A stretch of DNA of 64,000 bases from Candidatus Micrarchaeota archaeon (GTDB lineage: Archaea > Micrarchaeota > Micrarchaeia > Anstonellales > Bilamarchaeaceae): positions 308,399 to 372,398 of the forward strand of contig CAZYJW010000002.1 in NCBI GenBank assembly GCA_964647855.1, in the 5' to 3' direction. Shown piece after piece: positions 11,277 to 15,020 of the stretch. Position numbers and translations under genes: made by a program. The stretch's first letter is position 1. Each line of letters begins with the position of its first letter. The notes under the pieces are model-generated. The model ran no database searches and had not been told where the DNA came from. It was given only the letters and a program-made list of their open reading frames with translations.

Positions 11277-11897
11277 CTATGCGCTCCTTCCGCCATGGGG
11301 GATGAGCTCGGATATGGCAGAGGCGACCGCCTCGCTGCCGTCGAACGCCCTAAGCGATTCTGCCGCCCGCGCGGCAATCTCCGGAAAGCGCTCGGCAAGC
11401 AGGATGATTGCGCGCAGATGGCGTTCCGGGGCGGCGATGTCGGCCGCGACAAGCGGGACGATGGCGTCCAGCTCCCTTTCGCCGCCTATTTGCGAAAGGG
11501 CTTCCGAGGCGGCCTCGCGGACCGTCCGCATCGAGCCGTAGAGAGCGAGGGCGCCCCGCACGAGCGGGAGGCCTTCGGGCTCCCCGTACTCGGCTATGAC
11601 CGCGACCGTGCGGGCTACGAGCCGCTCCCTGATGGAGAGGTCGGCAATCGCGAGGTCGGCGTGCTCGAGGATGTAGCGGCATTTGCGCAGGGCTGTCAGG
11701 CCGGGGTCGCCGACGGTGATGTCCGAGCGGATTTCCGCCTCGGCGAGGATCGCGCGGTCGGCTTCCGGCATTTTTGAAGTGAACGAGCCCACGGCGCATG
11801 GCGGGTCGATGGAGGGGCGTTCGGAATAGTGGAGCCGCCTCGCCTTGCTTATGGCGATTATTTTCTGCGTATCCACCGCCCGGTTGCCCCCAGCCAT
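11277..11897 (-). CDS. HEAT/PBS-lyase-like repeat protein (206 aa)
   Basis: Repeated helical units such as LPLVRGALALYGSMRTVREAASEALSQIGGERELDAIVPLV; ORF-track start 11939 lies in an AT-rich TATA region, so ATG at 11897 (MAGGNR) preferred. Confidence 0.5.
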   Translation of the reverse strand: MAGGNRAVDTQKIIAISKARRLHYSERPSIDPPCAVGSFTSKMPEADRAILAEAEIRSDITVGDPGLTALRKCRYILEHADLAIADLSIRERLVARTVAVIAEYGEPEGLPLVRGALALYGSMRTVREAASEALSQIGGERELDAIVPLVAADIAAPERHLRAIILLAERFPEIAARAAESLRAFDGSEAVASAISELIPHGGRSA

Positions 11898-11919
11898 ACC
11901 ATATTGATATAATACGCAA

Positions 11920-11933
11920 TTATTTAAAATATA
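11920..11933 (-). promoter_or_regulatory. TATA-like box about 29 nt upstream of ATG 11897 (minus strand)
   Basis: TTATTTAAAATATA in an otherwise GC-rich context. Confidence 0.4.
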
Positions 11934-12100
11934 CCACAATTATCCCGCCAACGCGCGTTTTGCCCACAGAGGGTACGTAAAACACACCAAGAAGCATCAG
12001 AATTTGCGACTGTTCCGCATCAAGATTTATATATGTTATGGAACTAACATATCTTGGTTCATGCTCGTTTTAAGTGCATGGGAGGATAACTGGTCGCCTT

Positions 12101-12122
12101 GCCAGCGGAGCGATCCGCTGGC
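12101..12122 (+). other. Perfect 9-bp hairpin capped by a GNRA tetraloop (GCCAGCGGA-GCGA-TCCGCTGGC) in a non-coding region
   Basis: Read directly from sequence; strand of the RNA, if any, is unknown (GCGA on plus strand, TCGC on minus). Confidence 0.5.
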
Positions 12123-12154
12123 CTATTTCTATTCACTTGAAACTTTGGCTTAGT

Positions 12155-12182
12155 CATACTCAGGGCAAAGTTTCATCAAACC
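12155..12182 (+). repeat. Copy A of 28-nt element CATACTCAGGGCAAAGTTTCATCAAACC
   Basis: 27/28 identical to copy B located 56 nt downstream; core GTTTcatcAAAC is a GTTT-N4-AAAC dyad. Confidence 0.85.
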
Positions 12183-12210
12183 AGGAGATGAACTCCGGAT
12201 ACTGGCTGGC

Positions 12211-12238
12211 CATACCCAGGGCAAAGTTTCATCAAACC
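12211..12238 (+). repeat. Copy B of 28-nt element CATACCCAGGGCAAAGTTTCATCAAACC
   Basis: Direct repeat of copy A. Confidence 0.85.
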
Positions 12239-12317
12239 TAGAGTTGCTTCTCCTGCATGGGGATATGCTTGGGGAAATGCCCCATCAAAGCCATCGGTTT
12301 TTCCTTCCCCACTCGTG

Positions 12318-12329
12318 CTTATTTAAAGC
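12318..12329 (+). promoter_or_regulatory. TATA-like box (CTTATTTAAAGC) about 36 nt upstream of rtcA ATG
   Basis: AT-rich element at promoter distance from 12360. Confidence 0.4.
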
Positions 12330-12359
12330 AGGGCAGCATCAATTCCCTGGGGCAATGCC

Positions 12360-13334
12360 ATGATGGAAGATGCGGTTGAGATTGACGGCTCATACGGGGA
12401 AGGCGGCGGGCAGGTAATCCGCACCTCGCTCACGCTCGCGGCAATCACGCAGAAGCCCCTCAGGATAACCGGGATAAGGGCGAACCGGCCGAACCCGGGC
12501 CTCCAGCCCCAGCACCTTACCGCATGCAAGGCGGTCCGGAACGTGTGCAGGGGCACGCTGGAGGGCGCCGAAATCGGCAGCCGGGAGCTGGCCTTCAAGC
12601 CGGGGCCGATCGTGGGCGGCAGGTACGATTTCGACATCGGGACCGCCGGCTCCGTCACGCTGGTCGCCCAGGCGCTGGTTCCCATCCTCCTTCGCGCCTC
12701 CAAAAGGAGCGAAATCAGGATAAGCGGGGGCACCCACGTGATGAAATCCCCCGGATACGACTATTTCGAGCGCGTGTTCCTTCCGGCGGCCTCCCGCTTC
12801 GGCGCAAGGATCAATTCGAGGATGCTCCGGCCGGGGTTCTACCCCAAAGGCGGCGGGACAATCGAGGTGTCGGTCGAGCCGTCAGTTCTTTCGGGCTGCT
12901 CCGCCTGGCCGCACGAGGACCATGTCCAGGCGGTAATCAGGCTCGCACAGCTTCCGCCCCACATCGGGGTCAGGGAGAAGAAGGTGTTTGTCCAGAACGG
13001 GATAGGGCACGTCTCGGTTTACGAGGACGACGCCCTTTCTCCCGGAAATGCGGTCACGGCCTGGCGGGGGTTACGGGGGGCCTATGCCCTGGGCGAGAAG
13101 GGGAAGAGGGCAGAATCCGTGGCGCAGGAGGCGCTGGATTTCCTGGGGGGGGAAAACGGCGATGTCGACTCGCACCTTGCGGACCAGCTCCTCGCCTATG
13201 CGGCGCTCGCGGACGGCCCGACGAGATACACCATGGGGCATGCGACCCCGCACCTGCGCACGAACGCCCACGTGATAGGGAAGTTCCTGGGGAGGGACAT
13301 CAGGATAGCCGACGGTTGCGTGGAAGTGGGATGA
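12360..13334 (+). CDS. rtcA: RNA 3'-terminal phosphate cyclase
   Basis: N-terminus [46 protein letters not shown] and [14 protein letters not shown] are the RtcA signature; length 324 aa. Confidence 0.9.
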
Positions 13335-14364: not shown

Positions 14365-14384
14365 TGACGAAGAACGCCTCATGA

Positions 14385-14413
14385 AGTTTGATGAAACTTT
14401 ACCCTAAGCCATG
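14385..14413 (-). repeat. Copy C (inverted orientation) of the GGG(C/T)AAAGTTTCATCAAAC element
   Basis: Plus strand GTTTGATGAAACTTTACCCT is the reverse complement of the copy A/B core with 1 mismatch over 20 nt. Confidence 0.75.
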
Positions 14414-14426
14414 GCGAAGGAAGGTT

Positions 14427-15020
14427 TCATTTGAAGGACTCGCCGCGCTCGGACCTGCGTATCTCGACGCGCCTCATCCGGGTTATCGTCTTGAGCCTGC
14501 TGAAGACCTTGGAGGAGAAGCGGCCGTAGATGACGTCCTGGATGACCTCGTCGAAGGGCTTCTCGGCTATCGACTTCTTGCACTCGTCGACGATCAGGGT
14601 GCGCAGGTTCCTGCGGGTGTTCTCGCTGACGCGCGCGCCCGTCACCGCGATTATCTTTAGGCGCAGCGGCTCGTTGTCCTTGGTCTTCTCGTCCACGACC
14701 TGGTGGATGAGCGATTTGCCGCGCCTCGCGAACGTCCTGATGAATGATGGCGCTATCTCATGGCCGAGCAGCTTAGTGTTCGCATCGCTGCCGTTCACGT
14801 CCTGTATCCTGAAGCGCAGCGTGGTGAACATCGCCATCTGCGACCCGCCGCCCATGCCCAGCTCAAGCAGGCTCGAGCGCACGATTCGGTTCAGGAGCCT
14901 CTTGTCGTCCGATGCCACCACCTCGCAGAGCTCCTTGTGCTCGAAGAGCGGCGGCGCCTTTACCGAGTACCATTTCTTAGCCTTCCATTTGTCGACAGTC
15001 TTGACCTTTTTGCCTGCTAT
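14427..15020 (-). CDS. rps3ae: 30S ribosomal protein S3Ae (eS1); 5' end uncertain, no canonical start codon
   Basis: ORF-track model starts at internal GTG (14921), but upstream in-frame codons read IAGKKVKTVDKWKAKKWYSVKAPPLFEHKELCEVV, the conserved S3Ae N-terminus, with good GC3. There is no ATG/GTG/TTG between in-frame stop (15038-15036) and 14921. Confidence 0.75.
   Translation of the reverse strand: MAGKKVKTVDKWKAKKWYSVKAPPLFEHKELCEVVASDDKRLLNRIVRSSLLELGMGGGSQMAMFTTLRFRIQDVNGSDANTKLLGHEIAPSFIRTFARRGKSLIHQVVDEKTKDNEPLRLKIIAVTGARVSENTRRNLRTLIVDECKKSIAEKPFDEVIQDVIYGRFSSKVFSRLKTITRMRRVEIRRSERGESFK

Follow-up and report, generated by a model that had tools for sequence, protein, structure and literature searches.

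Bacterial Y RNAs (YrlA/YrlB) are encoded with Ro60 (rsr) upstream of rtcB-rtcA repair operons (10.1101/312249; PMC7790460). Here we analyze a 64,000-nt stretch of DNA (the window) on contig C2 of a Micrarchaeota metagenome-assembled genome (G000; 1.36 Mb, 81% complete), where an AT-rich non-coding island of about 460 nt in front of rtcA holds a predicted small RNA gene. Like the bacterial Y RNAs, its product would be a small structured non-coding RNA (ncRNA) whose gene shares a strand with an RNA 3'-phosphate cyclase gene and immediately precedes it, with apparent protein docking rather than base pairing and a pyrimidine/U-rich 3' end. Unlike them, it belongs to an archaeal phylum, has no sequence similarity to them, no Rfam Y_RNA match and no tRNA-like domain, no Ro60/TROVE was found here, and the RNA is kept beside radA in lineages without rtcA.

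With domain IV of the signal recognition particle (SRP) RNA and with 6S RNA it shares a single-copy, near-universal presence in its clade, a strong promoter of its own, and an invariant internal loop and helix foot next to freely covarying distal helices; it differs from them in its ~80 nt size, its motif and its phylum-restricted distribution. We suggest that four units make up the island: the promoter of a divergent HEAT gene, the small RNA gene, hairpin repeats and the rtcA promoter. For this explanation as a whole, with the RNA taken as the protein-docking RNA of a ribonucleoprotein (RNP) near repair genes, we judge the case for and the case against to be about evenly balanced. Below, C1, C2 and C3 are contigs of G000, L-numbers are loci of relatives and G-numbers are the genomes compared; counts over relatives are not independent.

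A small RNA gene conserved across the Micrarchaeota

The 462-nt island was compared by blastn with 40 relatives and only its middle was matched: window positions ~12022-12181 in 24/24 genomes of the genus and ~12080-12136 in six other families of the order. The alignments are gene-like, with a conserved TATA, ~25 variable bases and a conserved block, and similarity is lost after a pyrimidine tract. The TATA motif TTTWWAWA is matched at 8/8 positions in 84/117 unique upstream regions across the phylum, with a peak 55-63 nt before the core and at 62 nt here. Because the TATA keeps a fixed distance to the core, the RNA should start near 12056 and be ~75-90 nt long. By this comparison positions 12026-12135 (+) are shown as a predicted small ncRNA gene, independent of its neighbours and with its own canonical promoter. 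The original prediction had proposed a structured ncRNA at ~12060-12302; its strand, promoter and start (about 12056-12060) stand, and its length does not, since the conserved gene is ~80 nt and reaches to ~12135. The RNA consists of a variable 5' hairpin region, an invariant single strand, the P2 hairpin and a pyrimidine tail (12123-12135), which is likely the 3' end or a weak terminator.

The sequence CTGGTCGCCTTGCC is identical in 21/21 homologues found by blastn and not by an exact word; the changes among them are one in the preceding AA (to AG, L027) and one compensated helix change (L016), and the single-strand stretch CUGGUCGCCUU never varies. The exact 19-mer of the core occurs in at least 120 stretches in 185,579 species genomes. 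Nearly all of the matches listed are labelled Micrarchaeota. One of them is in the cultivated Ca. Micrarchaeum sp. A_DKE, whose genome is complete and has the RNA at ~63.1 kb of the chromosome; five bacterial matches among those listed lie in unrelated sequence. From 89 sequences gathered with the 19-mer (alignment A1) the covariance model R1 was built. It finds the RNA in 138/151 genomes sampled across the phylum (a count that includes one unpublished genome, G064, on which no claim rests), in 120/133 high-quality genomes and in 77/85 genera, as a single copy in 135 of the 138 positive genomes; in families f16, f18 and f24 it has no match (0/5, 0/2 and 0/1). G000 has one copy (76.8 bits, C2:320452-320539, window 12054-12141). 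By these counts the predicted gene is single-copy and near-universal in the phylum.

The P2 helix is supported by the covariation analysis that had been proposed as a check. Across the 89 homologues 95.3% of its cells are paired, whereas slide controls of the partner strand reach 20-39%; 72 cells are doubly changed vs 20.5 in shuffles, and three pairs have compensatory changes. The six base pairs of the foot are unchanged or nearly so (one G-U wobble in 4/89), and the upper pairs covary. The loop varies in sequence and length among homologues; hence, of the GNRA hairpin described earlier, the stem is conserved and the GNRA loop is not. The tail CCUAUUUCUAUUC is able to pair with the purine-rich GGGAGGAUA at 12080-12088. 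Cognate pairs of these segments reach -6.3 kcal/mol vs -5.9 for non-cognate ones (permutation p = 0.004), and this helix is weakly supported. Single-sequence folding of the RNA is only modestly more stable than that of shuffles (z = -1.8); the 5' hairpin has a mean z of about -1 and is lineage-specific, and the reversed-sequence control for it is uninformative.

The RNA corresponds to no family that we could find. The Rfam comparison suggested earlier matches no family to it: at the gathering threshold Rfam 15 has 0 matches in the window, a permissive search gives two chance matches (E = 2.5-3.7) off the RNA, and no match overlaps the RNA in six other lineage variants (seven variants in all). 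G000 has its SRP RNA, RNase P RNA and 5S rRNA at other places, so the RNA is none of these three, and a tRNA and transfer-messenger RNA scan of the window gives none. The loop lengths differ by non-multiples of three and so break the reading frame; the RNA is therefore not coding, and a small peptide (CUG GUC GCC...) is rejected. Two 16-mer core matches with 1 mismatch in A_DKE are not paralogues. Both lie in protein-coding genes and are due to chance, one in an SRP54/FtsY-type GTPase gene, the other at the C-terminus of an opposite-strand gene with a third-position substitution pattern. A weak R1 match at C1:180913 is coding-looking sequence. No exact core match was found in viral contigs, and literature searches for ncRNA of Micrarchaeota or DPANN, or for an archaeal rtcA-linked RNA, gave nothing relevant; no regulator of archaeal rtcA was found in the literature searched. 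The RNA family is thus previously undescribed: Rfam lacks it, and no description was found in the searchable literature.

Micrarchaeota are reduced, host-dependent DPANN archaea with a small core gene set. A single-copy RNA kept in ~90% of their genomes, with a 14-nt stretch invariant in unbiased homologues, likely has a basic role and has been missed by annotation. It is open to direct study in the cultivated Ca. Micrarchaeum harzensis A_DKE.

Two further elements lie near the promoter. An 8-bp perfect inverted repeat (12031-12038 / 12045-12052), listed in the original prediction, persists with one mismatch in the closest relatives alone and does not exceed chance. At 41/133 loci (e.g. L030, L036, L062, L121, L130), mostly in radA-type lineages, a box TTCC(A/G)CTA(A/T)T stands 72-88 nt before the RNA core and ~10 nt upstream of the TATA, in many cases with GGAAAG after it, which gives a TTCC-N7-GGAA dyad. 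The box, probably an operator for a transcription factor, shares ACTTCCACTATT with the origin-type box beside orc1 of G000 described below, and it is absent from this window.

Proposed role of the RNA and its alternatives

We suggest that a conserved protein would dock sequence-specifically at the invariant core and that the RNA would be the RNA subunit or scaffold of an RNP, a reading toward which we lean tentatively, at a level up to but not above an even chance. The core is most likely read by protein because the foot pairs are frozen in widely diverged genomes and there is no complementary target: neither the genome nor RNase P RNA, SRP RNA, 5S rRNA or 10 ARAGORN tRNAs offer the core an antisense site better than those of shuffled seeds, in a search that left out 16S and 23S rRNA, both absent from the assembly. 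G000 gives no match to conserved 16S or 23S rRNA words, and the rRNA operon seems to be missing from it.

The gene neighbourhood adds a possible direction. The gene rtcA follows on the same strand at 46/138 loci, and radA (Rad51 domain) lies downstream at 47/133 context-scored loci, mostly in Micrarchaeaceae-type lineages; a divergent gene for a DUF92 membrane protein stands upstream at 55/133 context-scored loci. Other loci have different or convergent downstream genes (e.g. L080), among them a YbaK-type editing-domain gene. The RTC domain was not found in the complete A_DKE genome, and since A_DKE keeps the RNA, the RNA is not solely for rtcA. By the logic of the bacterial Y RNAs in rsr-yrl-rtcBA operons, the recurrent position upstream of rtcA and radA hints at a role in nucleic-acid repair or quality control, and it gives a concrete hypothesis tying an ncRNA to nucleic-acid repair in archaea. 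As to function, our best guess is that the RNA binds protein and possibly takes part in RNA repair or quality control. As to the rtcA/rtcB linkage of the Y RNAs, rtcA is downstream at the third of loci given above, and the complete A_DKE genome has the RNA without it; as to their end stem, the purine run before the core can pair with the tail, cognate segments have a small advantage, and the pairing does not take in the 5' end itself. A more specific version, which we think unlikely, would be a Micrarchaeota-specific RNP that surveys damage to RNA or to nucleic acids (an archaeal functional counterpart of Ro-Y with another protein), or a sensor RNA gating rtcA or radA via the invariant 13-nt loop. 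In the sensor variant, if true, the loop would bind a damage-related ligand or RNA end.

Several points weigh against the RNP proposal and the repair link. The invariance of the core in A1 is by construction, and that of the six foot pairs partly so, because these sequences were collected with the 19-mer; the unbiased set has n = 21. Both transcript ends are placed indirectly, the 5' end from TATA spacing and the 3' end from the loss of conservation past the pyrimidine tract. The sequencing runs in which the stretch was found are DNA runs from anaerobic digesters, biogas and sludge; the one possible RNA run matches two short pieces of rtcA and gives no evidence either way. Transcription may read on into the repeats because the tail has T3 only. 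The short distance between core and rtcA in several lineages (~50-70 nt) also fits a cis-acting leader. Gene neighbourhood is the sole basis of the repair link, and Ro60/TROVE (PF05731) has no match in the 81%-complete genome.

The T3 leads to the alternative that survives best, although we regard it as doubtful: the transcript here would be a ~245-nt RNA running from ~12056 through the repeats to the T5 at 12298-12302, the first T run of five or longer after P2, with the repeat hairpin as its 3' domain. The hairpin folds better on the plus strand and stands directly 3' of the RNA gene in several congeners, and a related copy lies directly 3' of the RNase P RNA gene (C1:161289). However, phylum-wide conservation ends at ~12135, unrelated loci also have the repeat and in both orientations, and the last hairpin before the T5 is no better than shuffles. 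The hairpin and the 28-nt repeats, which one of the two readings in the original prediction had joined into one ncRNA, are a separate, genus-confined repeat family.

It is rather unlikely that the RNA is a cis-acting leader or attenuator of rtcA or radA, riboswitch-like or protein-dependent, in which the invariant loop senses a signal and the hairpin with the pyrimidine/U tract stops or passes RNA polymerase. A same-strand gene does lie downstream at most loci, chiefly the rtcA and radA cases counted above, and in place of P2 a pairing of CUGGU (12090-12094) with GCCAG (12101-12105) is possible, which would make an antiterminator/terminator layout; because all bases of this alternative pairing are invariant, it is beyond the reach of covariation. 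About 9 loci, from two families or more, have the start of rtcA 49-67 nt past the core, which leaves little room for a separate promoter and could mean co-transcription; equally, the T-rich tail in these compact loci could be the TATA of a leaderless rtcA. Here, though, rtcA is 225 nt away, beyond two repeat copies, and has its own TATA-like box, and radA of L036 has a T6 run and a TATAAA ~27 nt before its ATG. Convergent genes follow at some loci, and the RNA is present in a genome without rtcA. Across lineages the genes downstream are rtcA, radA, YbaK-type, others and convergent ones.

Still less probable is a trans-acting base-pairing regulator, whose CU-rich segments (anti-Shine-Dalgarno-like UUCUC / CUCUUCCU) mask ribosome-binding sites and whose core is a chaperone handle. 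Pyrimidine-rich segments do flank the core on both sides in nearly all lineages, with a GGAGG-like purine run between them, and these segments and the purine run can pair mutually. However, the segments differ between lineages, no target set was identified, and the invariant part has no complementary genomic site.

A hairpin repeat family at gene tails

Positions 12138-12246, by profile and pairing evidence, comprise a full copy of a hairpin repeat and a partial one, a family separate from the RNA gene. As RNA the repeat has the form GAAACUUU...AAAGUUUC-AUCAAAC; each full copy has GAAACTTT, ~20 nt, AAAGTTTC and then ATCAAAC. For the hairpin at 12134-12186 the plus strand gives a folding energy of -15.7 kcal/mol (z = -3.6) and the minus strand one of -11.1 (z = -1.6). 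The two 28-nt direct repeats reported 56 nt apart (12155-12182 and 12211-12238) were borne out, with 27/28 identical positions and 89% identity when extended to 36 nt; they are a local partial duplication of the hairpin repeat.

With up to 3 mismatches allowed, the genome has 7 sites of the 19-mer GGGCAAAGTTTCATCAAAC vs 0 for a reversed control, so that the genome-wide core count proposed earlier comes out above random. A profile search of G000 finds five full copies of ~58 nt, the partial second copy here and weaker ones. Altogether there are 6-9 sites; they are spread over three contigs, at gene tails and in either orientation. Copies stand after the small RNA, after the RNase P RNA facing the SRP54 end, across the rps3ae stop before nac, between prefoldin and ftsY, after aIF2-gamma and after a GNAT acetyltransferase gene. 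The 15-mer is found in 24/24 genomes of the genus at 1-17 copies (controls up to 2) and at control level outside the genus, with tandem clusters at 56-100 nt spacing in G023, G022, G006 and G010. Five independent compensated double changes occur in the 8-bp stem in G000 and relatives (GAAAATTT/AAATTTTC, GAATCTTT/AAAGATTC, GAACTTTT/AAAAGTTC, TAAACTTT/AAAGTTTA, CAAACTTTT/AAAAGTTTG), and the repeat lies directly 3' of the small RNA gene in L010, L011, L016 and L043, where stem changes are compensated. For a pseudoknot or long lower stem, in which the loop pairs with sequence past ATCAAAC, cognate pairing is marginally above non-cognate (p = 0.04).

By its distribution, the repeat behaves as a repetitive extragenic palindrome (REP)-like or miniature inverted-repeat transposable element (MITE)-like hairpin at gene tails. 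Like REP/REPIN and archaeal MITE-like repeats, it is a dispersed, short, imperfect intergenic palindrome at gene tails with compensated stems, its copy number differs widely among close relatives, and it occasionally forms tandem clusters. Unlike REP/REPIN, it has 1-17 copies only and a conserved apical 16-nt palindrome and ATCAAAC tail, one copy sits in a tRNA-Glu intron and several are syntenic between species; no Y1/RAYT was found, the Y1 (RAYT/IS200-type) transposase family PF01797 having no match in the 81%-complete genome. If it acts at all, the repeat would possibly form the 3' ends of transcripts or insulate neighbouring genes. These results document a family of hairpin repeats specific to the genus.

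Some copies are placed in a particular manner. The copy at 14376-14433 takes the rps3ae stop TGA as the first three bases of its TGAAAC left arm, as also in relative L072 (CAAATGAAAC). A weaker copy (C1:161289-161336, +) lies 7 nt past the gene for RNase P RNA (C1:161060-161282); the 3' end of the convergent SRP54 gene is 34 nt away. A tRNA-Glu(CUC)-like gene (G000:C1:~518180-518330, +; L026:1405-1463, -) has an intron of ~52 nt after position 37 that holds a short version of the repeat, GAAACTTTTT-GGG-AAAAGTTTC-ATCAAAA, with the closing pair swapped in a congener (CAAACTTTT / AAAAGTTTG). The neighbours of the repeat are often nascent-protein factors (SRP54, FtsY, NAC, prefoldin alpha, GNAT acetyltransferase) or belong to translation (S3Ae, aIF2-gamma); this bias may merely reflect highly expressed housekeeping clusters.

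The same neighbours suggest another function, which we consider improbable: a transcription-factor operator or a BRE/TATA-like promoter (AAAG-TTTCATCAAA) of a small regulon of translation and protein targeting. The copies adjoin ftsY, SRP54, nac, prefoldin, rps3ae and aIF2-gamma, the 16 bp of AAGTTT-N4-AAACTT form a palindrome, and related AAAGTTTTATCAAAA sites occur ~40 nt before a start codon, after a tRNA. However, the orientation of copies to their neighbours is inconsistent and two of them lie towards convergent genes at their 3' ends; where AAAGTTTC is changed, the matching change is found in the distant left arm and not in the adjacent half-site; and copy number varies widely by species, with tandem clusters. 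Three other candidates were rejected. As a promoter for leaderless ATGs at +28/+29 the repeat fails because these ATGs face the 3' ends of convergent genes; for a C/D box on the minus strand (UGAUGA...CUGA) the D box is not conserved among copies; and for an array of clustered regularly interspaced short palindromic repeats (CRISPR) there are two good copies and one at 72%, the repeat being single at other loci (cas genes were not searched).

Least of all do we credit a replication origin at the island, with the GTTT-CATC-AAAC repeats and their G strings as origin recognition boxes (ORBs), and this candidate is removed as false. Like archaeal ORB/mini-ORB, the repeat has a short dyad beside a G run, repeated in an AT-richer intergenic region: three same-sense copies and one inverted arm lie within 150 bp, adjoining an AT-rich stretch, and AGTTTCAT is in common with the Pyrococcus ORB as given in the original prediction, which is a lead rather than a test. 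Unlike them, it lacks an adjacent orc1/cdc6, as already remarked in that prediction: the sole Cdc6_C match of the genome is at C3:97994-99184, whereas the window is on C2. An orc1/cdc6 gene next to an archaeal origin is usual, not obligatory; ORBs themselves occur at origins only, inverted on either side of an unwinding element. Further, the motif is genus-specific and dispersed on three contigs at gene tails, with 1-17 copies among congeners, its stem covaries as a hairpin and not as a fixed protein site, and cumulative GC skew, another check proposed earlier, rises steadily over 1-14 kb and has no turn at 12 kb, which is a weak test in archaea.

Just upstream of orc1/cdc6, at C3:97833-97947, ~100 bp are bordered by two inverted ORB-like boxes, ACTTCCAGTAT and ACTTCCACTAT; a G6 run comes after the second. 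These inverted ACTTCCA(G/C)TAT boxes differ from GTTTCATCAAAC, and they likely mark the true origin of the genome.

Make-up and flanks of the island

The island has a GC content of 45.5% vs 63.3% for the whole window. To its left lies the divergent gene of a HEAT_2 protein (Pfam match; minus strand, ATG at 11897), to its right rtcA (ATG at 12360, RTC Pfam match 2.4e-79), for which a TATA of its own had been predicted and a TATA-like box is present; the start of rtcA shows no duplication. Because the TATA-like box of the HEAT_2 gene is ~29 nt upstream of the ATG, its mRNA would be leaderless or have a very short leader. All elements listed in the original prediction (the TATA, the 8-bp inverted repeat, the 9-bp stem with GCGA loop, the hairpin arms, the direct repeats, ATGGGG/CCCCAT and the T5) lie where it had placed them. 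Table 1 collects the features.

Table 1. Features of the island and the related repeat copy nearby (window coordinates)
Feature	Position	Strand	Basis and remarks
AT-rich TATA-like box of the divergent HEAT_2 gene	11920..11933	-	Read from sequence; role inferred
TATA box of the small RNA gene, TTTATATA	12026..12033	+	Conserved in 11/11 same-genus homologues
Predicted small RNA gene, ~80 nt	12056..12135	+	Model R1, blastn; both ends inferred
Unchanging core, AACTGGTCGCCTTGCCAGC	12088..12106	+	13-nt single strand AACUGGUCGCCUU and first 6 nt of the helix
Helix P2, GCCAGCGGA / UCCGCUGGC, GCGA loop	12101..12122	+	Covariation in the 89-sequence alignment
Pyrimidine-rich tail, CCUAUUUCUAUUC	12123..12135	+	Tract conserved in the alignment
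Hairpin repeat, full copy	12138..12182	+	Left arm TGAAACTTTG 12138-12147; right arm CAAAGTTTCA 12166-12175; tail ATCAAAC 12176-12182
Hairpin repeat, partial second copy (right half only), 56 nt after the first	12211..12246	+	nhmmer E = 1.1e-6
Hairpin repeat, degenerate third copy	12272..12289	+	72% to the 18-nt core; overlaps the ATGGGG/CCCCAT hairpin
TATA-like box of rtcA, TTATTTAAAG	12319..12328	+	Read from sequence; role inferred from spacing
Hairpin repeat, full copy between rps3ae and nac	14376..14433	-	nhmmer E = 1.7e-15; S3Ae and NAC Pfam matches

In the last part of the island ATGGGG (12257-12262) and CCCCAT (12280-12285) precede the T5. The hairpin proposed for them folds at the level of shuffled sequence (z = 0.04) and was not upheld. 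An open reading frame of 40 codons (12257-12379, +) begins at the ATG of ATGGGG; its last 20 nt overlap the start of rtcA, which is in a different frame. Further, GGAAATGCCCCA (12273-12284) is 83% complementary to TGGGGCAATGCC (12348-12359), directly before the rtcA ATG, and such pairing, if formed, could mask the rtcA ribosome-binding site. DNA near-identical to that of the window is found in anaerobic-digester, biogas-fermenter, bioreactor and sludge metagenomes of several studies.

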